Source: Candidatus Omnitrophota bacterium
GTDB lineage: Bacteria; Omnitrophota; Omnitrophia; Omnitrophales; JACROU01
Direction: 5' to 3'
Assembly: GCA_029261035.1 (NCBI GenBank)
Contig: JAJDCD010000005.1
Span: 27,516 to 91,515 of the forward strand
Length of the DNA: 64,000 nt
Made by a program: the position numbers and the translations under genes. Shown here one piece after another: positions 4,416 to 34,331 of the stretch (positions are counted from its first letter, which is position 1; each line of letters starts with the position of its first letter). The notes under the pieces are model-generated. The model ran no database searches. It saw only the letters and a program-made list of their open reading frames with translations, and had not been told where the DNA came from.

Positions 4416-7400
4416 ATGAGATATGAAAAATACCATTCAACTCAAAAGCTCTTTTCAGTTCACTCTTTAGGTGAAAAAGTTGGAAGTAGTTTTTTAATTA
4501 TTTTCTTCTTGCTGAGCACTCTTTTTGTTTCTCCTGAATCTCTTTTAGCAGAAACAGTTACCCATCAAAAACCTTCAGTATATTCTATTTCTCAAGTAAA
4601 TCAAATTCATATTCCAAAAGAGTTTGGTATCGTTGAAGAAGTTTATCATTCATCTTCTCCAGCTAAAAACAATCCTATGATTGTTTATTTACAAGATGCT
4701 CACTGTATCTATGAGGCCCAATCAAATATTCGAAAAATAATAGACACTCTTCAAAAGAAAAATGGATTACGGCTTATTGCTTTGGAAGGCGGTGAGGGAG
4801 GATTGGACACAGACCTTTTTCGATCTTTTCCTGTTCAAGCAGTAAAAGAGAAAGTGATCGATGATTATGTTCGGAGGGGGGAATTGTCAGGAGCGGAGTA
4901 TGCAGCAATTGTAAATGAAAAGTCTTCGGATTATTGGGGCATTGAGGACATGGTTGTTTATTACGAAAATAAAAATGCTTTTCTAGAATCAATTGACGAT
5001 AAAAAACGAATCGATCTAAAATTAGATGATTTAGATCGTTGGTTAAAAAAGAAAAAAGATGAAATCTATAGTAATCCCCTTAAAGATAATTTTAAAGAGT
5101 ATGAAGCATACGAGAAAGAATATATTACATTACTCGATTACTTAAACTATTTAAAAGAGCAATGGATACAAGCGGGTAAATCGCTGACGGAATTTGCAAG
5201 TATCCAGACGTTGTTGGAAGCGATTAATCGAGAGAAGCAAATGGACTTCACTCAAGTTCAAAGTGAGGCGGTTAGGCTAGAAAAAGTTTTAGAACGACGC
5301 TATAAAAGTGAAATACGTTCTGGTTCAACGACGTCTAAAGTAAGCTTTCAAGATTTAGAAGCTCGAAGGTCCCTGTTTGGAGAAGGTAAGTCTCAAAAAG
5401 ATCAATTTTACCCTTGGATTTGGGCGCGTGTTATAGAAGAGGATTTAGTTGCAGAAGATAGCTCTAATGATAGTTACCCCCATTTTCTTTCCTATATTAA
5501 ACACTTACAGGAACTGGAAAATATAAAAGGCGAAAGTCTCTTTAATGAATTAGAGAAAATGAACCAAGGAATAAAAGATTCTTTATTTCAAAATGAAGAA
5601 CAAAGAACCTTGGATCAGCTTTTTTATAACTTAAAGATACTCCGTAATCTTTCTAAGTTAGAACTCACTCGAGAAGAGCTGGAGTATTATCATAAGAATC
5701 GTGAGAGTTTGTCAGAGAAGAGTTTTTGGGATTTTATGGGAAGAGAATTGGGTCGGTTAGAATTGGATGATTTGTTCAAATCTCATGAACGTTTTTATGA
5801 AGCGGCAATCAAAAGAGATCGTATTTTGTATCAAAACCTTATGGATTTGTTGAAAGAAAAGAAACAAGATTTTGCGATGGTGGTTACGGGAGGGTTTCAT
5901 ACGGATGGTATTAAGGAACGCCTTAAAGCCAAAGGTTTTTCTTATATGGTTGTAACACCGCGCATCACCCAATTTGACGAAGAAACTCCGTATTGGGATG
6001 TGATGCAAGGAAATGTTTCTTATGCGAAGTATAAAAAGACATTTACTTTAGCGCCAGAGTTAGCATTGCAGGTTTATAACGAAGCTATTGAAGCCGCGAT
6101 TGTGGATTCCTTTGTTAGCGCAATAGAAGCAGATTTGCCTGAAGTTTTAAATTCATGGAGAGATAATGTCTTAACACAAGATTTAGATAGAGAAGTTGCA
6201 GCACAATACACAACAACGATTGATCGTTTGATTGACAGGCTTGTTTTAGGGTTAGAACAAACTCAAATTAACCCAGAGCTTATTCAAGGTGTGTCGGAAA
6301 CTCTCCGGCTTTATTTGCAAGGTGAACGAGATGCCGTTGTCCAAAAAGTGGATCAGCTTCAAGCAAGAATTTTACAGCTCCAAACTCAAAAAGTGGTTTC
6401 AAAAGCAGCGGTCAGTGCTGAGCTGGGTTCTTCATTTCCCGAATTTGCGTTACAAGAAGGAGTTTTTCAAGCTAGTTCTTTGGGAGCAATCGTTACAATT
6501 TCTGAAGCAAATCTATCTTCTTTTAATCGACTCCTAGACTTCGTTGATGCAGAAAGCATTAGGGATTTTTTAATTAATACAATTAGTTCTGTTGATGTAG
6601 AGTCTCAATTAGAGATGCTTGAACGGCTGTTGACACGTAATTCGGGTGAAAATGTCAAAATCGGTATTCCGATGACTCTCGCTGTAGAGCAGATGGTGGC
6701 TGTATATCAATTAAAAATAGGGGATGACTTAGGGGGTAAACGAAATCGGGATTTGGTTAAAATATCAAAATTGGAAATGGCAAAGAATTTATTGAAACAA
6801 ATTAAACAAACAAAAGATAGTGGAAAACCTCTTTCTGCAGAGGGTCTTGAGTTAATGACAGGACTCTTTAATATGCTTCAACCGATGTTCGATCGAACCG
6901 GGGCAAATTTAGAGTCAATGACCAATGTTTTGATTCGTAGAGATGATAGCGGAGTAGCTCCATTTCTGTCAGATAATGAGGCTGTGTTCATTATTGATCA
7001 TATTTATCCAATCAGTTTTATCAATAAAAAGGACCCAACATATTTACTTGGGGATGCTTTAATTGCAGCGCAAAAAGCTGCGTTGATAGGACTTAAAAAC
7101 CGGTATCAGTATGAAGTGGATGTCTCTTCGAAGCGAGGTGTTGTTTTTGGGATTCAGCAAGCACTTCTAGAACAATTTCATACAGACTACTTGGCTTTAG
7201 TTCAAGAAAACTTGAACAAAACAGCAGAAACTAATTCGAAATTAAAGGTGATATTAGATCAAAACCCTTCTCTCCTTAGTGATAGAGAGCTTTTTGGAGA
7301 GGGGAAAATTCGTGCAAAATACGCTTATAAAACGGGAGCTCAGATTAATGAATTGATTCCTACGTTAGGTCTTGGAATTCAATCTCTTCAGGAGCTGGGC

Positions 7401-10400
7401 AACGATAAAGCGTCAGAAAATATAGCAAATAAAATATCTAAATTGATTGTTCCTGAGTTGGAAGATATCGTTGAAGAAGTGAAATTGAGTCAATTGAAAA
7501 GCTTAAATATCTTGAATCAGAATTTTTATAATTTGGGTCGTATTCCATCCGATGTGCGATTTAATGCTTATAATCGTCGTGGTCCCCCTCGAGTGAATGA
7601 TTTTAGTGGTTTGTGGAGTAACGCAAATCTTCCAGGTATTGATATCGTAGTAGGTGAGCTATTAGAACAGCTTAAGAAAGATAAAGTTGATGACAAAATA
7701 GAGCCACTCCTTCCAGAGATTACAGATTACCTAATTCGATTATTGGAAGAAGCACTTGCTTTTACAGAACGGAACCCCCGACATCACCTCTTATTTAATG
7801 AATTATTTTTTACATCTCAAGTTCGAGAATTGCTTCAAAGAGAATTTAATCCTAATGCGCTAGAAGAAATGCAGGTGGCATTAGGGGGTAATCGATTACC
7901 TGAAAGGTTAAATCATAAAACGTTTACGAAGGGAGATGAGCACTTTACTCTTTTTAGAGATCAATCTGGAAAAGTGAACTATTTGTTTGTGGACTTTGAT
8001 AATTTTCAAGTGCTTGATTTATTACAACGTCAGCTAAATGTGCTTCCTAATGATGATGGTACTTTTTTTGATTTGCACGCACAAGTTGATTTGGCCTTGG
8101 AAGCGTTGATCGCGAGTAAAGAAGAGATCACCTCTCAGGATTTACAAGAAATGTTAGATCGAATTTTAGATCAAGTTGAAGTGGTTCTAGATTTATCCGA
8201 CGAAGAAACTCAAAAATATCTAGAACGCCATAATATGGACCCAGAGACTTTTGAAAAGTATGGAGAAATTTATAACGACAAAGAAGGTGTTTTTGTGAGT
8301 GTACCGGTTAGAAGAGTGAGTGTGGATACTAAAACAAAATATGAGGACAAACGTCGCCTCACAGGTAAGATCGGAAATATTGGGTTTAGTTCTTCTTTAA
8401 CTTCTGAATTAAATTTATCTAGAGAAGATTCCTTAGAAACGCTTTACAATAAACTGGAATCCATCTTAGGTTCTGGAGGTGTTGCTGTCGATATGCTCAA
8501 AGGGTTGAATAGAAGAGGGGAGAATGTGGAGCTTAACTCCACAGAGTATGGGCAAATATGGGGGGATTTCTTTAAAAAAGAAGCTTTGGAGAAAGTGAAT
8601 AAAAAAAACATATTGAGAGAATTAAATTCCACAGAGTTGCAAAATATGGATGAAGAGGGAAAGGGGATTGCTGTACAGCTCATATTAAACTTAAAAGAAG
8701 AGGTTCATGAAAATCGAGTGTATGTGATTGGTGAATTGGCTGATTTAGCGCTTCAATATGGGATAGAGTTTGCAGTGGTAGAAGGTTTTGTGAAGATGAT
8801 GGATGGTTTAGAGTTAGAACAACCGGATATTATTTCAGCTCAATCGTTAGGAAATGCTCAAATTTCAGAATTATTGATTCAAGACCTGGTTCAAGGGAAT
8901 TCTCCAGAAGAAATTAGAGATTACTTAAAAACGGAAGATGTCGAAGAGCAAATTCGGGGTATTGGAAGTTTGCTTGCAGGAGCTAATATCCGATCCTTTC
9001 AACGAGAGCAGCCAGGACAGTTTCAAGAACTTTTTACGGAGCTCGATGTGGAGTCGAGGCAAAGGGTTATTAATGCAGCTGTTAAAATAGCTACGGTTAA
9101 GAAAAAGCTAGCTAATTTTCTTCAGATTCAAAATCCAAACAACTTAAATTCATTGATTCAACGTTTTAGAAATTTAAAAGTTGATGAAGATCCAGGTGTC
9201 ATTATGTTGCGTTTCTTATCCGAAGAAGGGCGTAGAGAAGAATTTAAATCTAGAATGACTCAATTGCAGTTTAGAAATGATCTGAGGGATTATGTTCGAG
9301 AAGTAGTTGCAGAATTACCCGCCAAAGTTATTCCTATTAATCGAACTCAAGCAAAGCCTCATGTGGAAAATCAGATTCCTTTTGATTTAAGAAGAGAAGA
9401 TGCTCTCCTTTTTAAGGATATGGCAGAACTGCTACGGAATCAAAATCAGACAGATACAGCGCCTATTCTCCGATTGAGAGGAAAAGTTCGTTATGCGGGA
9501 AGAAATCTTGTTGGAGCGGGAACAACGCCTACTGAAAGAGGTATTCGTGCATTGACAGAACAGTATGGGCTAGAGGCTCCTACGAGTGACATTCAAACAA
9601 CGACCGAAGAATTATTAAGAAAGATGAAGCAGCGTTATGTTCATTTACTTGGAGCTCAAGTTGCTTTGGGAATCCAAAATTCTGATGAACTTACTCAATT
9701 TTTAGAGCGTATATCTCAGCAGGAAATCCCTATACTGACAGGAATAGAAGGGTTTGATTTATTAGAGGAGTTGATTGATGATCAGAAACTTAAAGAAATT
9801 GCTCCTGGTGTCAGTCATTCCTTTTTGGTTAATCAAAGAGGAAAAAGAAGTCTGGCTGTCCTTCGTCCTAATGAAATTATGTTTTTTAAACAATTTACAT
9901 CGGTAAAGGAAAGGGTAGAAGCGCAGTTAATGGGTAAACGATTAGAGCGAGAGATTTCTCTTTCAAAACTATACCCACAAAGTGGTGTTACTGAGCGTAT
10001 TTTGGATTTAGCGCAAAAGAATAGAGAGGGAGAACGTATTTTAGGTCTGGTTAAGCATTTTAAGAGACGTTACCCATCTCAAAATGAAAGAGATCGTTGG
10101 CTCACTGCTGCTTCTGAATTAGGTGTGAACCGAGTCTATAAGCGAGAGGTTTCAAAGCGAAGTCGAGATGTGGAGCAAGCACGAAAAAGGCTCAATGAAA
10201 TAAGTTCTAAAATAGCACGAAGAAAGAATTCAATTTTTTCTCGTTTTTTTAATATTGAAGCCTTAGAAAGCCAAAGAGAGCAATTAAGAAGAACATATCA
10301 AGCAGCTTTAGAAGAAAAGTCTTCATTTAAAGAAAAGTGGAGTTTGAATCCAGAAACAGGTAAATATCAATTAGCTCCTTCATCCAATATCTCTTTTTCC

Positions 10401-12032
10401 TATGAAGAAATTTACAAACAAGGTAAAGCACCTCTTTTGAAAGAGCTCATCGATTTACTTGCTTCTCAGGGTTATCCCTTTGGCGTTCTTGAAGGTCAAG
10501 AAGGGAGTATTACTTCTGTCTTAGAGCAGTTTGAGAAATTTTCAGCGCCTCTTCGTTTTTCAATGGCTCAAGGACGAGAAGAAATGATAGCGGGATTAGA
10601 TAGAAGTCAGCAGCAAGAGTTGGATCGTCTTATTGGAGAAATTAGATCGACAGATGTGGTATTAGATCGTTTAGACGCATTGTCTCCAAATGAATTTCCT
10701 ATTAAAACATTTTCTGATCTCAATAATTTTCAAGTTGCTCAAAGAATAGAAGAGTCCGTTTATTCAGATGTATTAAGTCAGGCGGATTTTCAGTTTAATT
10801 TTAACTCTAGACGAGTAGAAGGATTTTTGGAAGGAATTGTTCCGGAGGAAATTATTTTTGATTACTATAATCCAGTTGAGGCAAATGCACTTGGAGAACA
10901 AGTGGATGTGGAGTTAATGCAAAACCAGATTGCTATTGCAACGGATATTGCCTTTATTGTTGCTGGATTATCTCCGCCTAGTGGAAGAGATAAAACAGAC
11001 TATGAGCAGTCTGATTTTTCAGACTTCACTTTGTTTTTAGCAAATCTTAATGATGAAGATAGAGAAAATTTCCTTGTTAATTTAAGAGAAGGCGTGGCGA
11101 CGGCATTTAGTACTCAATTGGATTTGAATAATATAACTCAAATAGCAGAGCAGCTGACATCGGCCTCAGGGCAACGCTCAAACGAAGAGTTGTTAACTCA
11201 ATTGCGTTTGGCTACAGGTTTAGAATTATTAGATCTTTCTGATGTTGCTTTAGAGACGTTGCGTGAAACTTTGATTGCCCCTGTACAAGTACAAGTGGCC
11301 CAATCGCAGTTGGTAAATCAGTTTGATGCTCAATATGTCGATATGACGCGGCGAATAGACTCTCCTCAAGAGTTGGATTTAATTGTAAAGGGCTTAGCAG
11401 ATTATTATAATCAAGTTCTTGAAGGTATTATTTCGAGTAGTCCAAGTATTAAGGAGTCTTTGATTGTTCAGTATGATGGGAAGTCCTTTTTGGCGACTGC
11501 TAAAAATTTAAATAATTTAATTGAGACTCTTGAGTCTGTAGGAGCTAGAGGTAAAGTAATTGTCCATCATGATCCGAATCTGACTCAAGCGATTAATGAT
11601 ATTTTTTCTCAGCTGAGAGAGGCGGGGTATGGAAATTTGCTTTCTAAAATTCAAAAATCACGTTACCCTCTCAACTTAAGAGGATCAGATGTGAATCGAC
11701 ATAGTCGTTTGGCCACACGTTCTGGATTTGGGTCTGTTGCTTATTTTGGCATTGAAAATGGAAGTGTTTTACAAGAGTCTAAAGAAGAGAATAAATTGCA
11801 AGGGGATGTTGAAAAGCTAGATCGTTTTCAACCCTTTGTTTCTCTTTTAAATCGATTTGCTGTGACTTTGGCTCAGGTTCCAAAAGAAAAGCAAGCTGAG
11901 CTTGTTTCGGAGTTTTCTAGTTTGGGAATTGAGATGACTCCTGAAGGTGTTCTTACCATTAATCTTCAATCTCTTATTAATCGTATTACTTCTGAGTATC
12001 AATCTAGGGCTAAGGTTAAGGTTGCTGCGTAA
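4416..12032 (+). CDS. Giant secreted protein (2538 aa), a member of a paralogous family with a conserved N-terminal His-motif domain (~nt 4580-6040), a shared C-terminal module, and an -AA end.
   Basis: The ORF is uninterrupted and an SD GGAG lies 7 nt upstream. The N-terminus has a hydrophobic signal or anchor segment. It is ~60-70% identical to the 3765-aa ORF over the first ~560 aa and the last ~150 aa. Motifs are YLQDAHC, ALEGG, FYEAAIKRDRIL, VVTGGFHTDGI and TPRIT. The SxxSLG motif occurs 3-4 times. The protein ends ...VKVAA. Confidence 0.85.
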   Translation: MRYEKYHSTQKLFSVHSLGEKVGSSFLIIFFLLSTLFVSPESLLAETVTHQKPSVYSISQVNQIHIPKEFGIVEEVYHSSSPAKNNPMIVYLQDAHCIYEAQSNIRKIIDTLQKKNGLRLIALEGGEGGLDTDLFRSFPVQAVKEKVIDDYVRRGELSGAEYAAIVNEKSSDYWGIEDMVVYYENKNAFLESIDDKKRIDLKLDDLDRWLKKKKDEIYSNPLKDNFKEYEAYEKEYITLLDYLNYLKEQWIQAGKSLTEFASIQTLLEAINREKQMDFTQVQSEAVRLEKVLERRYKSEIRSGSTTSKVSFQDLEARRSLFGEGKSQKDQFYPWIWARVIEEDLVAEDSSNDSYPHFLSYIKHLQELENIKGESLFNELEKMNQGIKDSLFQNEEQRTLDQLFYNLKILRNLSKLELTREELEYYHKNRESLSEKSFWDFMGRELGRLELDDLFKSHERFYEAAIKRDRILYQNLMDLLKEKKQDFAMVVTGGFHTDGIKERLKAKGFSYMVVTPRITQFDEETPYWDVMQGNVSYAKYKKTFTLAPELALQVYNEAIEAAIVDSFVSAIEADLPEVLNSWRDNVLTQDLDREVAAQYTTTIDRLIDRLVLGLEQTQINPELIQGVSETLRLYLQGERDAVVQKVDQLQARILQLQTQKVVSKAAVSAELGSSFPEFALQEGVFQASSLGAIVTISEANLSSFNRLLDFVDAESIRDFLINTISSVDVESQLEMLERLLTRNSGENVKIGIPMTLAVEQMVAVYQLKIGDDLGGKRNRDLVKISKLEMAKNLLKQIKQTKDSGKPLSAEGLELMTGLFNMLQPMFDRTGANLESMTNVLIRRDDSGVAPFLSDNEAVFIIDHIYPISFINKKDPTYLLGDALIAAQKAALIGLKNRYQYEVDVSSKRGVVFGIQQALLEQFHTDYLALVQENLNKTAETNSKLKVILDQNPSLLSDRELFGEGKIRAKYAYKTGAQINELIPTLGLGIQSLQELGNDKASENIANKISKLIVPELEDIVEEVKLSQLKSLNILNQNFYNLGRIPSDVRFNAYNRRGPPRVNDFSGLWSNANLPGIDIVVGELLEQLKKDKVDDKIEPLLPEITDYLIRLLEEALAFTERNPRHHLLFNELFFTSQVRELLQREFNPNALEEMQVALGGNRLPERLNHKTFTKGDEHFTLFRDQSGKVNYLFVDFDNFQVLDLLQRQLNVLPNDDGTFFDLHAQVDLALEALIASKEEITSQDLQEMLDRILDQVEVVLDLSDEETQKYLERHNMDPETFEKYGEIYNDKEGVFVSVPVRRVSVDTKTKYEDKRRLTGKIGNIGFSSSLTSELNLSREDSLETLYNKLESILGSGGVAVDMLKGLNRRGENVELNSTEYGQIWGDFFKKEALEKVNKKNILRELNSTELQNMDEEGKGIAVQLILNLKEEVHENRVYVIGELADLALQYGIEFAVVEGFVKMMDGLELEQPDIISAQSLGNAQISELLIQDLVQGNSPEEIRDYLKTEDVEEQIRGIGSLLAGANIRSFQREQPGQFQELFTELDVESRQRVINAAVKIATVKKKLANFLQIQNPNNLNSLIQRFRNLKVDEDPGVIMLRFLSEEGRREEFKSRMTQLQFRNDLRDYVREVVAELPAKVIPINRTQAKPHVENQIPFDLRREDALLFKDMAELLRNQNQTDTAPILRLRGKVRYAGRNLVGAGTTPTERGIRALTEQYGLEAPTSDIQTTTEELLRKMKQRYVHLLGAQVALGIQNSDELTQFLERISQQEIPILTGIEGFDLLEELIDDQKLKEIAPGVSHSFLVNQRGKRSLAVLRPNEIMFFKQFTSVKERVEAQLMGKRLEREISLSKLYPQSGVTERILDLAQKNREGERILGLVKHFKRRYPSQNERDRWLTAASELGVNRVYKREVSKRSRDVEQARKRLNEISSKIARRKNSIFSRFFNIEALESQREQLRRTYQAALEEKSSFKEKWSLNPETGKYQLAPSSNISFSYEEIYKQGKAPLLKELIDLLASQGYPFGVLEGQEGSITSVLEQFEKFSAPLRFSMAQGREEMIAGLDRSQQQELDRLIGEIRSTDVVLDRLDALSPNEFPIKTFSDLNNFQVAQRIEESVYSDVLSQADFQFNFNSRRVEGFLEGIVPEEIIFDYYNPVEANALGEQVDVELMQNQIAIATDIAFIVAGLSPPSGRDKTDYEQSDFSDFTLFLANLNDEDRENFLVNLREGVATAFSTQLDLNNITQIAEQLTSASGQRSNEELLTQLRLATGLELLDLSDVALETLRETLIAPVQVQVAQSQLVNQFDAQYVDMTRRIDSPQELDLIVKGLADYYNQVLEGIISSSPSIKESLIVQYDGKSFLATAKNLNNLIETLESVGARGKVIVHHDPNLTQAINDIFSQLREAGYGNLLSKIQKSRYPLNLRGSDVNRHSRLATRSGFGSVAYFGIENGSVLQESKEENKLQGDVEKLDRFQPFVSLLNRFAVTLAQVPKEKQAELVSEFSSLGIEMTPEGVLTINLQSLINRITSEYQSRAKVKVAA

Positions 12033-12430: not shown

Positions 12431-15400
12431 TTGAAAATCAATATCTTCCAAAAACTCATCCTTAGTAGTCTGGTGCTTCAGCTTGTGTTGAGTCCTTCAC
12501 TCTCATTTTCCCAAAATAGTGTTGAGGTGAGTTCTTTCGTAGATCAGCAAACACAAACAATTCAAAAATATTCTAAAGATCAAGTTCGTCAAAAAACCGT
12601 TATGAACTTATCCTCTGAAGATGCTAAAAATGAAATTACTCAAGAAGCGGCACGGTTATTAAACCAAAAAAGAGTCCCTTTATCTCGAATAACAACCTTA
12701 CTATCAAGAGCTCGTCCAATGAGTGCAGCAAGCTTAGGTGAAAAGGTCCCTCAATATCTTACACGCAGTTTTTTAGTTTCTCCTTCTAAAGAAGCTCTAG
12801 AGAACTCTTCTTATAAAGATCAATTGGTAGTGCGCCTTGGAGATGACGATAAAATTAGTTTTGGAGATAACCTTCCAACGGATATCACAGATCAACGTCG
12901 AAAATTAATGGTAGATGTTAGAAGTATAAAAAATAAACTAGTAACGTATTTTCCTCAACTTAAAGATATTGCTTGGGAGTTCGTATTCTATCCAGATGAG
13001 CCTGTAGTTTTGGTCGAGGGTGATAGTGAGACTACTCTTCGCATCGATTTTGAATTATTGAACTATATTAATTTGTTGGTTGTTGCAATAACGGATTTGA
13101 CTCTGAGTTATGAATTAAGAGGGTACGACAATTCTGCTTTAGTAAAAATATTTAGTGTGTCTCGAGCTGTGAATATATTGATGAATATAGATAAGAAAGA
13201 AATTGATTGGTTGGTTGCGCGAGTTGATGGCAGTCGTAAAAGTGTGTATGGGGAGATTTTGAAGAGTTTCGCGGGTAAAGGAACGAATAGTTGGGTTAAA
13301 GATAATAGCCAGAAGTCGGAACTAATAAGGCGGTTAGTTGAGTTAATCCCTGTTAATAAAGAAGAGTTAAGGGAAGTGCTAACTCAATTAAGGAATGACC
13401 AGTTAGTTGCTATGGCAAAAATGGTATTTACCTTATCTATCGTATTCGAGTCTTGGTCTGAAGAGAGAGATTTGAATTTAACCCGGTTGTTAAAAATAAA
13501 ACCTGTAGGATTGTATAACAAAATTGAGCAAGTGAATGATTATCATGCGGCTTTGAAAATGATAGAACAGTTTGAATCAAAAGTAGAAAATGGGACTTTG
13601 ATGTATGAGGATTTAAAATCTTCGAGTGAAGAGCGTAAAACATTGATGGAAACCGTTTTTATTTTAATGGTGCGAGAACGTAAATTTGATTTATTGATAG
13701 CTGTATTTAATGTATATGTGAATTCAAACATGAACCCCAACTTGCTGTTAACACCCTTATTTAATACTTTGTATGCTTCGCAACGCCACTACGGTGCATG
13801 GATTTCGTCGCGTCAGTTAGCCGAGGCTTTGGCATATGTCGTCCAAAATACGGAGAATGATATTGTAAGTGAATCGATTAAAAAATTTCCTAGTGTTCCT
13901 TGGTTGAAAATGTCAAAAGAAAATAGAATAAGTGTTGGCAAGTGGCTTGAGCACTATTTGAATGGAAGTGAAGACAAGGGTGGCGAGATTTTTCTGAGTA
14001 AGTTTATGCCAGCAGTTTCCCAGGTGGAATTTGATGATGATTTGGTTTTTGCATCGAATCGAGGTGCTTCAGATAAATATGGGAGATTAAGTCTTGAAGA
14101 ATATAGCATGTTGTCAGATTCTGTTCAAAGAAAGAAAAAGTATGTGGCTTTAGCAGAAGTAGAAAAAGAGATCGGTGGAAATCGTGAAAAAATTTTTAAC
14201 CGTACGGGAAAGACTTTTTTAAGGAACCCACCGTTTCCAATTCAATTAGTTGATGATGGTCATCTTAGAACGTTAAAAATTGATTTTGAAATTTTTAATA
14301 ATAGAACAGCTGTTTATAAAGCGAGTTTGGGTGAAATTAGAGATGAGTTTTATTTGCAGAATGCCCCTCAAAGTTTTGCGCTTAAAAAACTTTTTGCTCT
14401 CGTTAATTTTCTTGATGTTTTGGTTGGTGCTTCTGTCGAAGAAAAGAAATTTGTGACACAAAGAGCGATTCAGTCTCAGAGGTACTCGTTAGCGGCTTTT
14501 CTCAGTCATTTTGAGCAAGAAGGGTATGAAAGAGAACCGTGGGGTAATAAAAAGTGGAGAAAGAACATTTTTGAGATTTTAAAAGAGTCATTTCCTGAAT
14601 TGAACGAAAGTATTGAGAGTTTGGAATTGTTGGATTCAGATGTCTTGAGACAACAACTATCTGATCTCGAGAATGAAAGAAAAACGGAGAAGTTGTGGGA
14701 ACATTTAGCAGAGTTACTTTTTGAGGATATATTGCATTCGGGACAGTTTTTTAGGGTGTTTGATGAGATTGTGAGTGGATTGGTTTATTTGAAACAAAGC
14801 AGTCAATCAGATCGTTTGGAGCAGTTTTTGACTTTGCTTTTGCAGACTCATAATGGGAGAGATAAACTCTTTGAAGCAGTGCATAAGACTTTAAAAGAGG
14901 ATGAAAGTCGACCGTCATTAGATGAAAAAGATGTTGCGGAGATCCTTTTAGTTTTAGAGAAGTTACTTAAGAGCAGTTTGGAGAGAGGGGTGAGGTTTAG
15001 AGCTCATCCAGAAACGAAAGTTAAATATGGTCTTACAAAAGAGATCTTCCAAAAAATAAAAAGACATTATGAAGAGGGAAGAACGGTTGTGGAAGCCAGT
15101 AGTTTAGGGAAATCCTATTTTGATCCAGCGACACTGAATGATCGTCATCAAATGTTGGTGATTGATTTAAACTCCTTTTCTCTTACTCCTTATTTTTCGA
15201 AACAATTGATTCGATTTTTAGAAGAGTCTAAAAATAAGCAGATACAATTATTAGTTTCTCGTTTTCCACAAATTGCAGAATTGAAAAAAGAGTTTAAAGC
15301 GCTAGGTATTCAAGATAGAGAGCTAAAGCAAATACAGTTTATTGTTAATCCATTAATTTCTTCAGGGCATATGAGCGAACTGTCTGAATCCCTTGAAAAA

Positions 15401-15775
15401 TGGAAAATGAATTTGAGTTCTGCAAATTCTGGATCAGCTACGGATATTGCTTTTGTTTCAGATTTTGATTTATTAGAGCGTTTACAAGAAAATAGGATTC
15501 ATTCTGTAGCTCTGGACCGTGTTTTTCAGGAACAAAGAAAAGAACTGTTAGATATTTCAAATATTCATGGGGCAGAGAGGCATGCTGCGATAGGGACCTT
15601 ATTTAACCTTTCTTGGCAGCTGTTGAGCCAAGAAACCGTAGATGGCTTGTCTTATCGATTAGAGAGAGACGGAAACACGGGTATCTATGTAGCTCGACTT
15701 GAGTTTTTAAGGGAAGCTATTCAAGATTGGCTTTCTGATTTTCAATCAAAACAACTTATTGAACAAGCTGCGTAG
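12431..15775 (+). CDS. Large secreted protein (1114 aa), related to the giant family only through SxxSLG motifs and the -AA terminus. It lacks the N-terminal family domain.
   Basis: It has a TTG start (in the ORF track) and a signal-peptide-like N-terminus (LILSSLVLQLVLSPSLSFSQ). There is an internal duplication (TTLRIDFELLNY ~13030 versus RTLKIDFEIFNN ~14265). Motifs are SAASLG, YKASLG and EASSLG. It ends ...IEQAA. Confidence 0.75.
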   Translation: MKINIFQKLILSSLVLQLVLSPSLSFSQNSVEVSSFVDQQTQTIQKYSKDQVRQKTVMNLSSEDAKNEITQEAARLLNQKRVPLSRITTLLSRARPMSAASLGEKVPQYLTRSFLVSPSKEALENSSYKDQLVVRLGDDDKISFGDNLPTDITDQRRKLMVDVRSIKNKLVTYFPQLKDIAWEFVFYPDEPVVLVEGDSETTLRIDFELLNYINLLVVAITDLTLSYELRGYDNSALVKIFSVSRAVNILMNIDKKEIDWLVARVDGSRKSVYGEILKSFAGKGTNSWVKDNSQKSELIRRLVELIPVNKEELREVLTQLRNDQLVAMAKMVFTLSIVFESWSEERDLNLTRLLKIKPVGLYNKIEQVNDYHAALKMIEQFESKVENGTLMYEDLKSSSEERKTLMETVFILMVRERKFDLLIAVFNVYVNSNMNPNLLLTPLFNTLYASQRHYGAWISSRQLAEALAYVVQNTENDIVSESIKKFPSVPWLKMSKENRISVGKWLEHYLNGSEDKGGEIFLSKFMPAVSQVEFDDDLVFASNRGASDKYGRLSLEEYSMLSDSVQRKKKYVALAEVEKEIGGNREKIFNRTGKTFLRNPPFPIQLVDDGHLRTLKIDFEIFNNRTAVYKASLGEIRDEFYLQNAPQSFALKKLFALVNFLDVLVGASVEEKKFVTQRAIQSQRYSLAAFLSHFEQEGYEREPWGNKKWRKNIFEILKESFPELNESIESLELLDSDVLRQQLSDLENERKTEKLWEHLAELLFEDILHSGQFFRVFDEIVSGLVYLKQSSQSDRLEQFLTLLLQTHNGRDKLFEAVHKTLKEDESRPSLDEKDVAEILLVLEKLLKSSLERGVRFRAHPETKVKYGLTKEIFQKIKRHYEEGRTVVEASSLGKSYFDPATLNDRHQMLVIDLNSFSLTPYFSKQLIRFLEESKNKQIQLLVSRFPQIAELKKEFKALGIQDRELKQIQFIVNPLISSGHMSELSESLEKWKMNLSSANSGSATDIAFVSDFDLLERLQENRIHSVALDRVFQEQRKELLDISNIHGAERHAAIGTLFNLSWQLLSQETVDGLSYRLERDGNTGIYVARLEFLREAIQDWLSDFQSKQLIEQAA

Positions 15776-16007
15776 TCGACTTTTTCGATTGTGCGTTATG
15801 GTTGTATTTGTCATTGTGAGACTGGGGAAATTGGGTCGTGGCAATCTTAGGAAAATTGTTATTAAATGATTCCTTTGTCTGAGATGGCCTCGGCTATTCC
15901 GCTATAGCCTCTCAATGACGGGTCTTTTAGCTATGAGCTAATGGCTGACAGCTGTAATCTTTTATGTCATAATAAGTACCTAAACTTATATTTTTGGAGG
16001 ATCTATT

Positions 16008-17588
16008 ATGTTTAATAAAGCATTCCTTACTTTTTCTATCGTAGTTGTTTCTTTCTTTTTAAATTCAAGTGGTGTACAAGCTCAAGCAGTAAGTGAGATT
16101 GAAATTATTTTTGATGCATCTCGGAGTATGAATGATGCTCAAGCTGGAACCAGTAAATTGATGGCGGCTAAACAGGCTTTAAGTACTGTGGCGAGTCAAA
16201 TTCAGGCCGGAAGCAATGTGGGACTTCGTGTTTTTGGTAAAACTCCAGTAAGAGGAAATGTGAAAGACTCCTGTGTGGATTCAAAATTAGTTATTCCGAT
16301 TCAGCCATTCCAGAGTATAGCGATGATTAGCCAAGTAAATGCACTTCAAGCACATGGCCAAACGGCAATCGGATACTCGCTGAAATTAGCAGCGAATGAT
16401 TTTACTGCTGGAGCTAAAAAATCCATTATCTTAATCAGTGACGGGGAAGAAAGTTGTGGAATGAATCCCATTGATGTTATTGCGGATTTAAAGGCGCAAG
16501 GAATTGATATTGTGATTCATACCGTAGGGTTTGATGTGAACCCAAAAGCGCGGGCTCAATTGCAGCAAATTTCTGAATTTACAGGTGGAACTTATGCGGA
16601 TGCGAGAAATGCAGGGGAGTTGAAGGCATCCCTGACTCAAGTGGTTCAAAATGCAGATCTTTTATTGAAGCCACAGCGTGGAGAGGGTGAAAATATTTTG
16701 TCAGCATCGAGTGGAACTCGTATTGTGTTTTCGAGTACAGAGGAATTCGCAAAGTTAATTGACGGTAAAGAAGATCAAACAGGGCCCTTGTACAATGCTC
16801 AGGAAGTTGTGTTCTCATTTAAAGATAATAATCCTATTCTTCTAGAGAAGTTTGCAATTCCAGTTTTTAAACAAGGTAGTTACAATGTTGGAACTGTTGA
16901 ACTTTTCGGATCTTATTCTGATCCTGATTCAGGATATTTTCCGGTCGCTTTAATTCAAGTTAAAAACCGTGTATTTTATGAAAATGTATATCAAGAATTT
17001 ACAATAGATCCGCCCAAAGCTCTAAAATATTTAAAAGCTGTTATGGGTTATGGATCTTCAGGTAGCCAAGCTTACTCTTCTGAATGGAAGGCGTATGGGG
17101 AGTTTTTAGAAGAAGATGAATTTAAGAAATATATGAAAGCAGAAGAGAAGAAAGAGAAGAATATTTTAGCTGCTAATAATGGCGGGCAATTGATAGCGGC
17201 AAGTAATGTGAACTTTAAATACCTTATTGACGGCACAGATCGTTCTCATGGACAGTCTGTCTCGATTCAACCAATACAGGAGGGTATTTTCGGATTTAAA
17301 GATGGGAAAACTGCTCTTATTAATAAAATGGCTATACCTATATTGGAATCTTCTGATAAGAATGTAAAGACAGTTGAGATCCTGGTATCTACATCTAGCC
17401 CAACAAGTGGTTATGAAAGTGTCGGTACATTTGAAACGATGAATCTTGTTTTTGCTGGGAACCCATATCAGGAATTTGTATTTGAAAAACCAGTTAAAGC
17501 AAAATATTTAAAAATTGTTGTTAAGGCAACTCATGGATTGTACTACTGCAATTTTCACGAATTACAAGCCTTTGGAACAGTTGAGTAA
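16008..17588 (+). CDS. Secreted von Willebrand factor type A (vWA) domain protein with two tandem C-terminal ~110-aa repeats.
   Basis: A signal peptide is present. The MIDAS motif D-x-S-x-S (DASRS) is present, with ...ILISDGEE downstream. The C-terminal repeats are FAIPVFKQGSYNVGTVELFGSYSDPDSGY... and MAIPILESSDKNVKTVEILVSTSSPTSGY... An RBS GGAGG is present. Confidence 0.75.
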   Translation: MFNKAFLTFSIVVVSFFLNSSGVQAQAVSEIEIIFDASRSMNDAQAGTSKLMAAKQALSTVASQIQAGSNVGLRVFGKTPVRGNVKDSCVDSKLVIPIQPFQSIAMISQVNALQAHGQTAIGYSLKLAANDFTAGAKKSIILISDGEESCGMNPIDVIADLKAQGIDIVIHTVGFDVNPKARAQLQQISEFTGGTYADARNAGELKASLTQVVQNADLLLKPQRGEGENILSASSGTRIVFSSTEEFAKLIDGKEDQTGPLYNAQEVVFSFKDNNPILLEKFAIPVFKQGSYNVGTVELFGSYSDPDSGYFPVALIQVKNRVFYENVYQEFTIDPPKALKYLKAVMGYGSSGSQAYSSEWKAYGEFLEEDEFKKYMKAEEKKEKNILAANNGGQLIAASNVNFKYLIDGTDRSHGQSVSIQPIQEGIFGFKDGKTALINKMAIPILESSDKNVKTVEILVSTSSPTSGYESVGTFETMNLVFAGNPYQEFVFEKPVKAKYLKIVVKATHGLYYCNFHELQAFGTVE

Positions 17589-17624
17589 ATAGCTTTAAGC
17601 TGATAGCTTGGACAGGGAAGTTTA

Positions 17625-18392
17625 ATGTTAAAAATATTATCTTGGAATGTGAATGGGATCCGTGCGGGGGAAAGAAAAGGGTTTTTGGATTGGCTTCAGA
17701 AAGAGCAGCCTGATATTCTGGGTGTTCAGGAAACGAAGGCGCATCCAGAACAGTTGAGTCAGGCGTTGTTGAACCCTCCTGGCTATGAAGTTCATTGGCA
17801 TTGGGCTACAACTCGAAAGGGTTATAGTGGTGTTGCGACGTTTACGAAAGTAAAACCTCTTTCTGTGAAGCGTGGTTTTAACATTGAGCGCTTTGATGCT
17901 GAAGGAAGAGTCATTGAGCTCGAGTTTAAAGATTTTAATTTTTTAAACATTTATTTCCCAAATGGAAAAGCTAGAGAAGAACGTCTTCGATATAAGATGG
18001 ATTTTTATAAAGAGACTTTGAAGTATGCTCAAAAACTCCGAAAAAAAGGAAAGAAACTTATAATTTCTGGAGACTACAATACCGCACATAAAGAAATAGA
18101 TTTACACCGTCCCAAAGAAAATTCCAAAGTTTCAGGTTTTCTTCCTGAAGAACGAGAGTGGATGGATCAATATATTGAAAAGGGTTTTCTGGATTCTTTT
18201 CGTCTTTATAATCAAGAGCCTGAACAGTATTCTTGGTGGGATATGCAAACCCGAGCGAGAGACCGGAATGTTGGCTGGAGAATTGATTATAATTTTGTAA
18301 CAGAAGATTTAAAACCTCGATTAAAAGATGCTTTCATTATGCAAGATGTCATGGGAAGTGACCACTGCCCAGTAGGAATCAAATTAGCGTAA
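17625..18392 (+). CDS. xth: Exodeoxyribonuclease III (EEP superfamily AP endonuclease).
   Basis: The N-terminal motif LSWNVNGIRA...GVQETK matches, and the 255-aa length is typical. Confidence 0.88.
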   Translation: MLKILSWNVNGIRAGERKGFLDWLQKEQPDILGVQETKAHPEQLSQALLNPPGYEVHWHWATTRKGYSGVATFTKVKPLSVKRGFNIERFDAEGRVIELEFKDFNFLNIYFPNGKAREERLRYKMDFYKETLKYAQKLRKKGKKLIISGDYNTAHKEIDLHRPKENSKVSGFLPEEREWMDQYIEKGFLDSFRLYNQEPEQYSWWDMQTRARDRNVGWRIDYNFVTEDLKPRLKDAFIMQDVMGSDHCPVGIKLA

Positions 18393-30152: not shown

Positions 30153-33100
30153 ATGAAACGGATTAGAATTGCTTTCATATATTTTACTTTGCTGACGTTT
30201 TGCAGTACTTCTATGCCTCAACATTCTTTTGCTGAAGCTGCAAAAGAAAATGTTTCTATCAAATCATTCCTGGATATCTCACCTGATTTAGCTCTTGTGG
30301 ATGAGGTTTATTATCCTAAAAACTCTAAAAACAAAGACAAATTCCTTATTTTCATTCAAGATCATCATGCGTCCGTACAGATGCAACGTCAAATAGCTCA
30401 GTTGATTCAGTGGTATGTTAAAGAAAAGCAAATTCCTTTGGTGGGTTATGAGGGAAATCGAGGTTTAATTCAGACGGATAAAGTTTTTTGGGTGCCCAGC
30501 CCAGAACTTAATTTAGAAGTGTCAGAGTACTTTCTCAAACAGCTTCAAATATCAGGCCCAGAATATGCGCATATCAATAAACAAAAAGAATTTGATTTAG
30601 TGGGTGTTGAAGATATGGGTTTGTATCGAAAAAATTTAAAATTGTTTCAAGATGCTTTCCGAATACGTTCTGAAGCAGAAGGTATTCTTAAGGTGCTAGA
30701 AAAAGAGATTGAAAGAAGTATTCGCTCTAGAGCTTCAGACTCCTTGATTAAGATTTTTGCAATGATGAAACAATATCGAGATAACCCAAGAGAAATGTAT
30801 GCGTACTTAGAGTTTCTCAGCAAGAGAGACCCTGAACAAGTCGCGATGTTAAAACAAATTCAATTGCTTCAAGAATTAGATCAATCCCAAAAAAAATGGG
30901 ATCCGTTAAAGCTTGTAAATGAGATGGGTGGATTTTTGCTTCAAAATAATATCAATGTAGATTCCGAACAATTGAAAATAGAAATTTCTCAACCTTCAGC
31001 AAATACAAAAAAAGCAATTCGTAATATGTCAGATGGAGAGAGGTCTGCTTTTCCTCTAATAAACTCTTGGTCGAATTATATCGAAAAAAGAGATCAGTTG
31101 GATGTTTCGGAGCTTTATAAAGAGCTGAGTATTTTAGAAAAAAACGTTGTTAAGCGTCTAGCACAAGCAGAAGGTTTGTACCCATTGTTTGAAGCTTGGT
31201 TTCATGTAGAGGCTTTGAAGAGTATTTTGTATTTGTCTGCAACGAGACAGCAAGTAGAGGAGTTCTGGACTCAACCGCTGTCTTATAAACAAAAATATTT
31301 TACTGACACATTAGCACCTTATTCAAAAGGGATTGAAACACAGTTAAAGAATAAAAATTTAGATTCCTTGATGCGATTTCCAAACCAATTTTATAGAACC
31401 GCTTTGGATCGAGATCTTGTTATGGCTCGTCAAATTATGAAGTACCTAGAAGATCAGAACCGAATGCTTTTTGTGTCTGGAGGTTTTCATAGACGAGGGG
31501 TGACTCAAGTGCTTCGAAGAAACAAAATTCCCTATGCGGTATTAACACCTCAAGTAGACACGGATCAAAAGATTCAAGACAAAATTTATATGCAACGTGT
31601 TTTAAATGCTCCATGGATTGAGACGGGTCAGTTTGGCCGAGTTCAAAGTTTTAGACAGCCGACTTTGTTTAATCAGCTGCCTTCCAAAGCGCGTGTTCTG
31701 GTGGACCAAGTGGCCATGCGTATAGCTCGTCAAGTAAAGCGGTTGGAAGTGACTGTTCCTCAAATTCAAGCGATGCTTCAGGACGACATGGATCGTTTTT
31801 TAAATAGAGGTTTTCAACCTGTGTCTGCGCAAAGCCTAGGGGATACGACCGTCTTGGACACGAGTTTGCTTTTTCCGCAAGACCTTATTGAAGATCAATA
31901 TGATGATAGTCCTGTATTACTTCTTTTTAAGGCTAGAATGGGAAACACTCCTGAACAGACTCCTGAATATGAATTTGCAACGGATGTGGATACTCAAATA
32001 ACAAGATCTATGGAACCTGGCGTTAGGCAGGTTCTAAACCAAATCCAGCAAATCAAAAATAAATTGGATACGATAAATAAAGAGATTTTTTATGGTGTGC
32101 AAATACATGTAATGAGAAATTCATCAAAATCAATTTCGTTGAGGGAGGAGCAGAAGCAGCTTATCTTAGAAGTTGATTATCGACTTTTTGTAAATAAAAA
32201 TATTTTATTTCCAGCAATCATAGAAATAATCATGGGTAATCATCTGAGGGAAGTTCCCAACTTACAATGGGTTAAACTGTATGCAGTATTTGAAGCTTTA
32301 AAATGGTTGGCAAATTCTCAGCCGGATTCAGATGTGCAAGCTTGGCTGCTTAGAAGTTTAGCCCATGATGATGTTCAATATTATCGGTTTGCTCAATTCA
32401 TGACAGATAACTGGCGAACTTTTGACCCAAATCAAGAGCGAGAAATTCATTTTTCGGATTTGGATCAGCAGCCGCTGCTTGTTGGGATTGCTAACGAAAT
32501 TTGGCCCAAGAGTAAGGAGCAAGAAGCTGAGATTCAACAGCTGAATCCAGAAGCCGCAAGTTTTGACTTGGAACAGTTTAAAATTTTATTTGGAGATCTT
32601 GATCAAGTAACAGAAGCTCTAGAACATATTCACAGCTATCGGGAAATTAAACAGGTTGAAGTAACTATCGATAACCATGTAGCAAATATGGACGATTTAA
32701 CAAAAGTTCAATTGTATGAGATTATAGACCGTATATTGGCTACTGAAGCTCGAGATCGGGAACATCGCCTTCATTTCGTTCGTTACTTGATGAATTTTTT
32801 AATTGTTAATCAGAGGTATGATTTAGCGACACATATTATGTTTTTAATTAAAGATACTCAGGATCCCATGGATACAGTTATTCGTGTGTATGAAGGGATG
32901 GATTTAGGTGCATTAATGGGCGTTCAGTTAGAAGTACATGATGTAGCAAGTTTTCTGTCTTATCTTCATGAAGAAGGTGTGGTCTTTGGAGCGGAACGTT
33001 ATACCGTGGAAGATATTGCTTTTTCTGCTGCCGATGCATTTCCAGAACTTGAGGGTGTTAGTAACGATCAAATTAATGAAGTTTACGAAACGTTTGAAGC

Positions 33101-34331
33101 TATTGTGTATGGGGCAAGTTTAGGTCGAAATGTTTTGGAATGGGCTATTGATTATAACCCTGATTTGATACAACAGAATTATGATTTAGACGATGAAATT
33201 GATCGAAGAGTCAGAGATTTTCAAATGGTCCTTTTGGGGCTGAGGAATGAAGGTGGGGCGCTTAAGGAATTTGAAAAAAGAGTAGATCTTGCTGCGAGGA
33301 CATTAAAGGGACTTATTAATAACGCTTTGGATGCTATCGAAATGCTGGGAGAGTCTGGTTCTGTTAGTATATCATCACGCCTTGGAGGTGGTAATTTGCG
33401 CGTGAAGGTTAAAGATACAGGAGAGGGTGTGCCTCAGGGTGAAAGAGAAAGATTGTTTGTAGAGGATATCGAATCCAGAAAGTTAGGTTATGCTGATGGA
33501 AGTATGAGAGGAGGGATGGGGGTGTTTTTAAAAGCTTCTAGAATGAATTTATTGCGTTTGGGGGGGGATATTAATATTTTTCCTCAGAGTGAAGAAAGAG
33601 GATCTCTTTTTTCATTTTCTTTGCCTCTGTTAGAGCGTTCTAAAGAACAGCGCAGTGAGGCAAAAAGTTTGGGGCTTCAAAATCAGAAAGTCAAAGAAAG
33701 GTATCAAGAAGTTGTTGTGGACATCAATCATGTCAGCGTATTGCCTTTTTTCTTAGAACGTTTAATTTTATTGTTGGAGCATTCAAAGTACAAGAGGGTT
33801 ACTTTTTTGATTCGTAGTAAGCAAGATGAGGGTGCTGTGAAGCAAGAGTTGAAACATTTAGGGATTTCAAGCCGTGCATTGAACAGAGTTCGTTTTAAAG
33901 TAAACCCCTTATTAACACCTCAGGATTTAGAAGAACTTAACCATTATTTAGAAGAGGTACAAAGTGATTTATCTTCAAAAAATAAGAAGTTTAGAAAAAA
34001 AGAAAAAGTATTAGATGTAGCAATGATTGCGAATTATCAAATACTTTTTAATTTAGATACGAAGCAATTTGTTACGCTTGCGAATGATCGAGTTGCGCGA
34101 GGTCAACAAGTTCAGTGGTTTCAGGCAACGAGCAGAGAAGAGGAGATGGGTGCTGTTTGGACTTTGTTTTCTTCAGCTTGGGAATTGCTTTCAGATAAAC
34201 AAACGAACAAAACGACCCGAAAGGATTGGAGAACGGGTATTTATTTAGTCAATTTTAGCTATTTAACAGAATCGATGGAGCGGTGGTTAAATCAGTACCG
34301 ACAAGAGCAAATTATACGCATTGCCGCATAA
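30153..34331 (+). CDS. Giant secreted protein (1392 aa) with a divergent N-terminal family domain and a C-terminal GHKL/histidine-kinase-like ATPase domain.
   Basis: A signal peptide is present. The N-domain motifs are FIQDHHA, GYEGN, FYRTALDRDLVM, VSGGFHRRGV and LTPQ (30270-31610). The HATPase_c boxes are at ~33300-33640 (N box LINNALDAIE, G1 VKDTGEGV, G2 GGMGVFL, GGDINIF). SxxSLG occurs 3 times. The protein ends RIAA. Confidence 0.8.
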   Translation: MKRIRIAFIYFTLLTFCSTSMPQHSFAEAAKENVSIKSFLDISPDLALVDEVYYPKNSKNKDKFLIFIQDHHASVQMQRQIAQLIQWYVKEKQIPLVGYEGNRGLIQTDKVFWVPSPELNLEVSEYFLKQLQISGPEYAHINKQKEFDLVGVEDMGLYRKNLKLFQDAFRIRSEAEGILKVLEKEIERSIRSRASDSLIKIFAMMKQYRDNPREMYAYLEFLSKRDPEQVAMLKQIQLLQELDQSQKKWDPLKLVNEMGGFLLQNNINVDSEQLKIEISQPSANTKKAIRNMSDGERSAFPLINSWSNYIEKRDQLDVSELYKELSILEKNVVKRLAQAEGLYPLFEAWFHVEALKSILYLSATRQQVEEFWTQPLSYKQKYFTDTLAPYSKGIETQLKNKNLDSLMRFPNQFYRTALDRDLVMARQIMKYLEDQNRMLFVSGGFHRRGVTQVLRRNKIPYAVLTPQVDTDQKIQDKIYMQRVLNAPWIETGQFGRVQSFRQPTLFNQLPSKARVLVDQVAMRIARQVKRLEVTVPQIQAMLQDDMDRFLNRGFQPVSAQSLGDTTVLDTSLLFPQDLIEDQYDDSPVLLLFKARMGNTPEQTPEYEFATDVDTQITRSMEPGVRQVLNQIQQIKNKLDTINKEIFYGVQIHVMRNSSKSISLREEQKQLILEVDYRLFVNKNILFPAIIEIIMGNHLREVPNLQWVKLYAVFEALKWLANSQPDSDVQAWLLRSLAHDDVQYYRFAQFMTDNWRTFDPNQEREIHFSDLDQQPLLVGIANEIWPKSKEQEAEIQQLNPEAASFDLEQFKILFGDLDQVTEALEHIHSYREIKQVEVTIDNHVANMDDLTKVQLYEIIDRILATEARDREHRLHFVRYLMNFLIVNQRYDLATHIMFLIKDTQDPMDTVIRVYEGMDLGALMGVQLEVHDVASFLSYLHEEGVVFGAERYTVEDIAFSAADAFPELEGVSNDQINEVYETFEAIVYGASLGRNVLEWAIDYNPDLIQQNYDLDDEIDRRVRDFQMVLLGLRNEGGALKEFEKRVDLAARTLKGLINNALDAIEMLGESGSVSISSRLGGGNLRVKVKDTGEGVPQGERERLFVEDIESRKLGYADGSMRGGMGVFLKASRMNLLRLGGDINIFPQSEERGSLFSFSLPLLERSKEQRSEAKSLGLQNQKVKERYQEVVVDINHVSVLPFFLERLILLLEHSKYKRVTFLIRSKQDEGAVKQELKHLGISSRALNRVRFKVNPLLTPQDLEELNHYLEEVQSDLSSKNKKFRKKEKVLDVAMIANYQILFNLDTKQFVTLANDRVARGQQVQWFQATSREEEMGAVWTLFSSAWELLSDKQTNKTTRKDWRTGIYLVNFSYLTESMERWLNQYRQEQIIRIAA

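Follow-up and report, generated by a model that had tools for sequence, protein, structure and literature searches.

Giant protein G4 and its layout

We analysed a 64,000 nt window, i.e. the whole stretch from position 27,516 to 91,515 of contig JAJDCD010000005.1 of a Candidatus Omnitrophota bacterium, and concentrated on the open reading frame (ORF) G4, which is one of six paralogous giants (G1-G6) in the window and carries a HATPase_c domain. An identical protein is held in a public collection (P0001, NCBI source). It belongs to the histidine-kinase type of catalytic and ATP-binding (CA) domains and lies between two short junction peptides, and no phospho-acceptor domain accompanies it in the window. 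The layout of G4 is as follows; numbers with the prefix P denote related proteins from outside the window.

30153..34331, + strand: ORF G4, 1392 aa, carrier of the HATPase_c domain
30153..30236, + strand: N-terminal signal-like segment MKRIRIAFIYFTLLTFCSTSMPQHSFAEA, with a basic n-region, a hydrophobic core and an AEA site, as judged from the sequence
30270..31562, + strand: N-terminal domain, common to G1, G3, G5, G6, P0002-P0004 and P0006
31827..31841, + strand: junction peptide 1, AQSLG, aa 559-563
31842..33110, + strand: middle module, aa 564-986, family-specific, partly common to G2, P0006 and P0007
33111..33125, + strand: junction peptide 2, GASLG, aa 987-991, upstream border of the cassette
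33126..33659, + strand: histidine-kinase-type CA cassette, aa 992-1169, starting with NVLEW
33294..33629, + strand: Pfam HATPase_c core, aa 1048-1159
33309..33341, + strand: N box, aa 1053-1063, with Asn1057 kept and Gly1053 in place of the first Asn
33414..33428, + strand: G1 box DTGEG, with Asp1088, Gly1090 and Gly1092 in columns that are invariant in relatives
33513..33530, + strand: G2 box GMGVFL, aa 1121-1126, with Gly1121 and Gly1123 kept and Phe1125 in place of the third Gly
33600..33626, + strand: G3-like box GSLFSFSLP, aa 1150-1158
33660..33674, + strand: junction peptide 3, AKSLG, aa 1170-1174, downstream border of the cassette
33675..34328, + strand: C-terminal module, aa 1175-1392, common to G2, P0006 and P0007, with ...RIAA-COOH as its last residues

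The N-terminal segment is the sole hydrophobic stretch of G4; elsewhere in the protein, no 19-residue Kyte-Doolittle window exceeded 1.6. Given the signal-like N-terminus and the lack of a further hydrophobic segment, G4 is predicted to be exported. A search with the whole protein returned the self match and three weak relatives of the N-terminal domain only. The middle module matched no Pfam family at E<=0.01, and a scan for promoters and terminators around the gene gave results no better than shuffles.

The ATPase domain is of the histidine-kinase type

A preliminary description of this DNA had proposed a GHKL/histidine-kinase-type ATPase domain at 33300-33640, which corresponds to aa 1050-1163 of G4. 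Scanning the whole protein against Pfam, we obtained a match to HATPase_c (PF02518) with an E value of 1.9e-11 (44.8 bits; curated cut-off: 26.4) that takes in profile positions 7-109 of 111. With the cassette scanned alone, the E value was 6.2e-13 (49.6 bits), and HATPase_c was the only Pfam family above its own cut-off. The best sequence matches in the PDB were all CA domains of histidine kinases, led by 9m08_C (5.6e-06) and followed by YycG, ZraS and KdpD. NCBIfam gave partial matches to sensor-kinase families only, all inside aa 1045-1190. We also used aa 562-1392 as query in an exhaustive HMMER search against 1.84 billion representative proteins. Among the best 150 matches, which were listed, those of the ATPase part were ordinary kinases with 40-59 bits, mostly at ~30-40% identity. 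Neither the cassette nor an alignment of the N-terminal domain had any match in word-indexed protein searches.

All motifs quoted in the preliminary description were located, and the order of the boxes is canonical: LINNALDAIE (aa 1054-1063), VKDTGEGVP (aa 1086-1094), Phe1102 (F box), GGMGVFL (aa 1120-1126) and GSLFSFSLP. An AlphaFold2 model of aa 881-1180 had a pLDDT of ~90 across the CA core. Its top Foldseek neighbours in the PDB were the cytoplasmic domains of histidine kinases (E ~1e-7), and the CA domain of ThkA aligned with a root-mean-square deviation of 2.3 Å over 122 columns. The model thus shows the alpha/beta sandwich of the Bergerat fold. Agreement of this extent exceeds by far what chance would give.

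The NNALDA motif prompted us to consider a GHL ATPase (MutL/Hsp90/GyrB/MORC). HATPase_c_3 scored only 15-17.8 bits (cut-off: 25), the position four residues before Asn1057, where Glu is expected, is occupied by Gly1053, and no GHL structure was present within the top 50 Foldseek matches, the neighbours being all kinases. An anti-sigma Ser kinase (SpoIIAB/RsbW) was rejected as well (HATPase_c_2: 13.1-17 bits; cut-off: 27.4), as was a PDK-type kinase, since PDK chains matched at E values of 0.4-0.9 only.

The profile and motif matches show a complete CA domain, which by its class is that of a HisKA-type histidine kinase and which is a member of GHKL/HATPase_c, as had been proposed. A different fold, which the preliminary description had named as one alternative, was not assigned by any profile search. 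The description had also placed the domain at the C-terminus of the 1392 aa giant. The presence of the domain was borne out, but its terminal position was not, because the 218 aa C-terminal module of the family (aa 1175-1392) comes after it.

The CA domain forms an inserted cassette

The homology of G4 to kinases begins directly after GASLG and takes in all of the CA domain, so that the segment preceding the N box is covered as well. Four kinases (P0009, P0052, P0056 and P0141) align further upstream than the other relatives. In this subgroup, the sequence NLLEWSR, which is matched by NVLEW of G4 (aa 992-996), is the end of helix alpha-2 of the dimerization and histidine phosphotransfer (DHp) domain. 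Since the homology starts at NVLEW, the piece is an entire CA domain whose upstream cut falls just within the DHp.

The closest homolog of G4 is P0006, a protein of 1493 aa from a JGI metagenome (L002, 542-5023). Its N-terminal domain is 43% identical to that of G4, and its C-terminal module is the same. The middle module of P0006 is duplicated in tandem, and the two copies are closed by SLG junctions at aa 904 and aa 1293. When the two proteins were aligned, ...VYGASLG of G4 fell on ...MAGTQGKSLG of P0006, in which the C-terminal module follows directly. G2 and P0007 also have the C-terminal module without a CA cassette, and the homology of this module with that of G4 starts at AKSLG.

These alignments show the CA domain to be one clean inserted cassette (aa 992-1169) between two [AG]x-SLG junctions. 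With few sequences to compare, insertion in the G4 lineage appears to be the more parsimonious direction. The cassette structure with defined junctions and the homolog lacking the cassette were not part of the preliminary description.

We also examined the base composition of the cassette. Its GC content is 0.404 vs 0.36-0.37 in the rest of the gene, and its GC content at third codon positions (GC3) is 0.306 vs 0.29-0.335. A recent horizontal insertion, as judged by composition, was rejected, there being no clear GC or GC3 signal.

No phospho-acceptor domain accompanies the cassette

Pfam scans of the cassette and of the 425 aa module upstream of it gave no HisKA-type, H-kinase_dim or Hpt family at E<=10. 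From 114 of the nearest kinase relatives found by HMMER, we built DHp+CA, H-box and DHp profiles. Run without any filter, the hidden Markov models (HMMs) of the H-box and the DHp found no match in aa 850-1000 of G4, and the DHp+CA profile aligned G4 from the N-box helix onward only. As a positive control, 125 of the 146 listed relatives that hold a CA match were detected by the DHp HMM with 10 bits or more. Nearly all of the other 21 are short, with the CA domain starting at most ~140 aa from the N-terminus, and we read them as gene fragments. Response_reg had no match in any ORF scanned within the window, and no DHp, HPt or receiver domain was found in any ORF of the window.

We asked how these results compare with the possibility that G4 is a cryptic sensor kinase, in which a divergent DHp is formed by the helices of aa 918-1001 and the acceptor is His929 or His939. 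The AlphaFold2 model has long helices at aa 918-940 and 971-1001, and the Foldseek alignments to structures comprising DHp and CA are 240-300 columns long. Moreover, MAFFT placed His929 on the phospho-His column of the H-box and greedy hhalign placed His939 there. However, the confidence of hhalign at this position was zero, and a third alignment (MAFFT --add) gave a Lys. The empty results of the filter-free HMMs also argue against a cryptic DHp, given the detection of 125 of 146 relatives by the same DHp HMM. The pLDDT of the helices is 60-74, and they may have been induced by the kinase-rich alignment given to AlphaFold2. Both histidines fall within the middle module and are not part of any DHp: the stretch containing them (aa 906-991) is homologous to P0006, which has no HATPase_c, and is therefore family sequence and not a decayed DHp. 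Taken together, a cryptic sensor kinase seems very improbable to us.

The lack of a HisKA domain or H-box upstream and the long family-specific region preceding the ATPase domain, both of which the preliminary description had noted, were thus confirmed. The DHp that defines two-component sensor kinases was searched for and not found, and by its sequence G4 is not a member of this group.

The family of giants and its junction peptide

The other five giants of the window are located as follows.

4416-12032: G1, 2538 aa
12431-15775: G2, 1114 aa
18635-29932: G3, 3765 aa
34528-42351: G5, 2607 aa
51202-58125: G6, 2307 aa

A domain of ~470 aa after the N-terminal hydrophobic segment is common to five of the six giants; G2, like P0007, is without it. 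Its invariant residues are H72, E100, E137, E153, R420 and GGFH443-446, and its AlphaFold2 model had a pLDDT of 80.9. The Pfam matches, to Cofac_haem_bdg at E 0.0065 and to TraB at E 0.08, stayed under the respective cut-offs, and PDB profile searches were empty. The best Foldseek match was the EreA-like structure 3b55 (E 0.09), with EreC and ChaN ranking lower. These are weak but mutually consistent hints from sequence and model that the domain may belong to the ChaN/TraB/EreA (Tiki) hydrolase superfamily.

The junction motif [AG][AKSQN]SLG was present 17 times in the giants, dividing the modules of all six, and was absent from 18 other ORFs of the window. Plain SLG occurred 24 times in the giants vs 5.75±2.3 times in shuffles (maximum 16; 2000 shuffles). 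The borders of homology blocks among the paralogs coincide with the motif. The codons of the junction vary between copies, and therefore the peptide and not the DNA is conserved. On the same grounds, we ruled out that the junction is a DNA recombination site. The junction looks like a protease site, having the pair Leu-Gly and a small residue at both -3 and -1.

At their C-termini, all six giants end in -AA-COOH (34323-34328 in G4), compared with none of the 18 other ORFs. Of the four relatives found elsewhere, three end in -AA and one in -SA, and the last ~70 aa align throughout. These ~70 aa of the C-terminal module of G4 also align with the C-terminal ends of all giants, and the module as a whole is 31% identical between G4 and G2. 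It matched neither the PDB nor Pfam, and a PDB profile search was empty. The -AA end may be a C-terminal recognition signal, e.g. one read by a tail-specific protease or during secretion.

The cargo between the terminal regions differs among the paralogs. G3 has a J-domain (DnaJ; aa 2213-2260) and a calcineurin-like phosphoesterase (Metallophos; aa 3075-3287), and P0004, a relative by its N-terminal domain, carries PPDK_N. By eye, G3 also has an FHA-like stretch at ~aa 2000-2045 and a kinase-like motif, DRxxNN...IDH, at ~aa 2500; no PDB sequence match was obtained for the kinase-like stretch.

A metagenome contig from the ENA (L003) encodes, in this order, a giant, P0007, a VWA protein, an endonuclease/exonuclease/phosphatase, a 1958 aa ortholog of G5, CN_hydrolase and agmatine deiminase. 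The same junctions and -AA ends are present at this locus, at the corresponding position of which there are no equivalents of G3 and G4 and no HATPase_c. The gene order around the giants is kept between the window (12431-18392) and L003 (10001-14967), namely a small giant, the VWA protein (526 aa) and the endonuclease/exonuclease/phosphatase-family protein (255 aa). The flanking giants differ between the two loci in number and cargo.

The comparisons of paralogs and relatives show a lineage-specific family of modular giants with a signal-like N-terminus, variable cargo, SLG junctions and a C-terminal module. The family is rare and apparently undescribed, and its architecture appears more novel than the CA domain itself.

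The topology of the giants bears on a further explanation of the CA domain, namely that it is membrane-anchored, faces the cytoplasm and uses cellular ATP to phosphorylate a separately encoded DHp or HPt. Such a split kinase would be comparable to CheA with its separated P1 and P4 domains. It would account for family modules that need cytosolic cofactors (HATPase_c in G4; DnaJ and Metallophos in G3), and according to a 2026 preprint (10.64898/2026.06.07.730766), an anchor in the membrane and signalling domains in the cytoplasm are predicted for many giant proteins of Omnitrophota. However, each giant has one hydrophobic segment, which is N-terminal throughout, and the basic n-regions, the short hydrophobic core and the AxA-like sites that follow fit cleaved Sec signals, with the C-terminus outside. 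The result that no ORF of the window has a DHp, HPt or receiver also speaks against a partner of this kind. We therefore consider a split kinase quite improbable, and a cassette that is exported as cargo remains the reading that we prefer.

The window that holds the giants is a piece of bacterial chromosome with a GC content of ~37%, and its housekeeping genes are ordinary ones. All large ORFs are on the + strand except one (1084-1707), and the GC skew is positive in each 2 kb window over the full 64 kb. At 48658-50607, a single ORF of 649 aa fuses uroporphyrinogen-III synthase (HemD) and uroporphyrinogen decarboxylase (HemE).

Active-site residues and proposed function of the cassette

We defined as conserved those columns of the CA domain that are occupied by one residue in at least 80% of the 114 relatives. 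G4 is identical at 17 of these 20 columns. Kept are Asn1057 (the invariant N-box column), Asp1088, Gly1090, Gly1092, Phe1102, Gly1121, Gly1123 and the G3-like box. One of the three differences is a conservative replacement of Ile by Val; the other two are Gly1053 and Phe1125. From this pattern, the cassette probably binds nucleotide.

Lacking a His helix in cis and a receiver nearby, and with a predicted extracytoplasmic location, the cassette would be unable to work as a two-component sensor or to autophosphorylate in cis. With moderate confidence, we favour the explanation that it is a captured orphan CA cassette that probably binds nucleotide and that acts, if at all, in trans as cargo. It would have been captured from a conventional sensor kinase, with the cut placed at the end of DHp helix alpha-2 and the piece inserted in front of the C-terminal module. 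Through the kept N, G1 and F boxes and the two G2 glycines, it would retain nucleotide binding, and its action in trans would be that of a kinase or an ATP-dependent binder with a target outside G4. If the protein is exported, ATP would be usable only inside another cell or compartment. Release at the SLG junctions possibly precedes this action.

Several points weigh against a functional captured cassette. A role in orienting the phospho-acceptor His is attributed to the first N-box Asn of histidine kinases, whose ATP lid has its hinge at the G2 glycines. This first Asn is present in 95% of the 114 relatives and is Gly1053 in G4; the third G2 Gly is present in 100% of them and is Phe1125 in G4. 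These two replacements could abolish catalysis, and by the roles of the residues concerned nucleotide binding is plausible and catalysis uncertain. Weak or lost kinase activity is thus a real possibility. Export, cleavage at the junctions and delivery to another cell are all predicted steps, for which neither a protease nor a secretion system nor a target was identified. Moreover, the cassette is a singleton: the family relatives found are without it, and none of the kinases among the 150 best matches listed shows the signature of the family. There is therefore no sign of selection for an activity of the cassette.

Some of these points also speak for the main rival explanation, by which the cassette is an inert relic, i.e. 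a captured CA fragment without catalysis that is kept as a folded spacer or a nucleotide-independent binder. Besides the alteration of two near-invariant positions and the lack of the cassette in every relative found, a relic would be in keeping with the segment before the N box, which is shorter than in kinases and was modelled with low confidence, and with the lack of a substrate domain in the window. On the other hand, the ORF is intact and 17 of the 20 conserved columns are retained. The GC3 of the cassette falls within the range of the rest of the gene, and with this matching composition the cassette is not a fresh insertion merely awaiting decay. An inert relic appears rather unlikely to us on balance, and we retain the captured, probably nucleotide-binding cassette as the preferred explanation.

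Comparison with known systems

The closest known relatives of the cassette are the HisKA-type sensor kinases of the subgroup P0009, P0052, P0056 and P0141, which have an FxxxAHDLKNPF H-box and the alpha-2 end NLLEWSR. G4 shares with them the N, G1, F, G2 and G3 boxes in order, the lid signature LFxxDxxxSxxG and 29-30% identity over the whole CA domain (direct BLASTP vs P0009 and P0056). Unlike sensor kinases, G4 has neither a DHp nor an H-box, it lacks the architecture of a transmembrane sensor, and there is no receiver in the window; it is predicted to be exported, and it has Gly1053 and Phe1125. The Bergerat fold is found without a DHp in cis also in SpoIIAB/RsbW and in mitochondrial PDK/BCKDK, GHKL protein kinases that need no phospho-histidine and phosphorylate their targets in trans, as the cassette would have to do. 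In contrast to these, G4 is clearly of the HisKA-kinase CA type in sequence, and no PDK-type N-terminal helical domain was detected in it.

The arrangement of the giants, with conserved terminal regions flanking swappable cassettes with short linkers, is comparable to that of MARTX and large clostridial toxins, which are autoprocessing and carry several effectors. In these toxins, cleavage of the linkers takes place behind a Leu that precedes a small residue, e.g. at the CPD site ...SL|G of TcdB. The Tiki-superfamily fold is represented among such toxins by the RRSP effector (PMC6254334). Unlike these toxins, the giants have no Peptidase_C80/CPD, RTX repeats or glucosyltransferase according to Pfam. 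They have a putative N-terminal Sec-type signal rather than a C-terminal type I secretion signal, and cleavage at SLG is putative.

Giant proteins of Omnitrophota ('Archaeovorins') have been described in a preprint (bioRxiv 10.1101/2023.11.21.568195), which lists HATPase_c and PPDK_N among the domains most frequently embedded in them. They resemble the giants described here in being very long and in having an N-terminal signal or anchor and embedded signalling or metabolic domains, and a post-translational cleavage of them has been proposed. The PPDK_N of P0004 has its counterpart in the Archaeovorins that carry this domain. In contrast to G4, they are 10-80 times longer, mostly have many transmembrane helices and have C39 and S8 peptidases proposed as their proteases. 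Term searches of this preprint and of 10.64898/2026.06.07.730766 returned no SLG junction, no -AA terminus and no N-terminal domain of the present kind. G4 resembles the trans-acting GHKL kinases, the MARTX-type architecture and the domain-rich Archaeovorins, without being a member of any of these groups.

A more far-reaching interpretation, which we put forward as speculative and think unlikely, would cover all six giants as well as the relatives from two or more further metagenomes. These would be undescribed polyproteins exported by the Sec route, with a Tiki/ChaN-like hydrolase as the conserved N-terminal domain, a C-terminal module ending nearly always in -AA and several swappable cargo modules that are freed at [AG]x-SLG. 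The CA domain would be delivered as a free domain of ~20 kDa into another cell, where it would act on a foreign phospho-relay or on other proteins.

For a CA domain without a His helix that is predicted to be exported, the textbook two-component mechanism is excluded, and the cassette of G4, if active, would be an example of the reuse of a kinase domain as trans-acting cargo. Exchange of cassettes at a short junction is represented by three kinds of events: the insertion of the CA domain in G4, the duplication of the middle module in P0006 and the differing cargo of the paralogs. As a defined motif, the junction offers a handle on whether giant bacterial proteins get cut into pieces.

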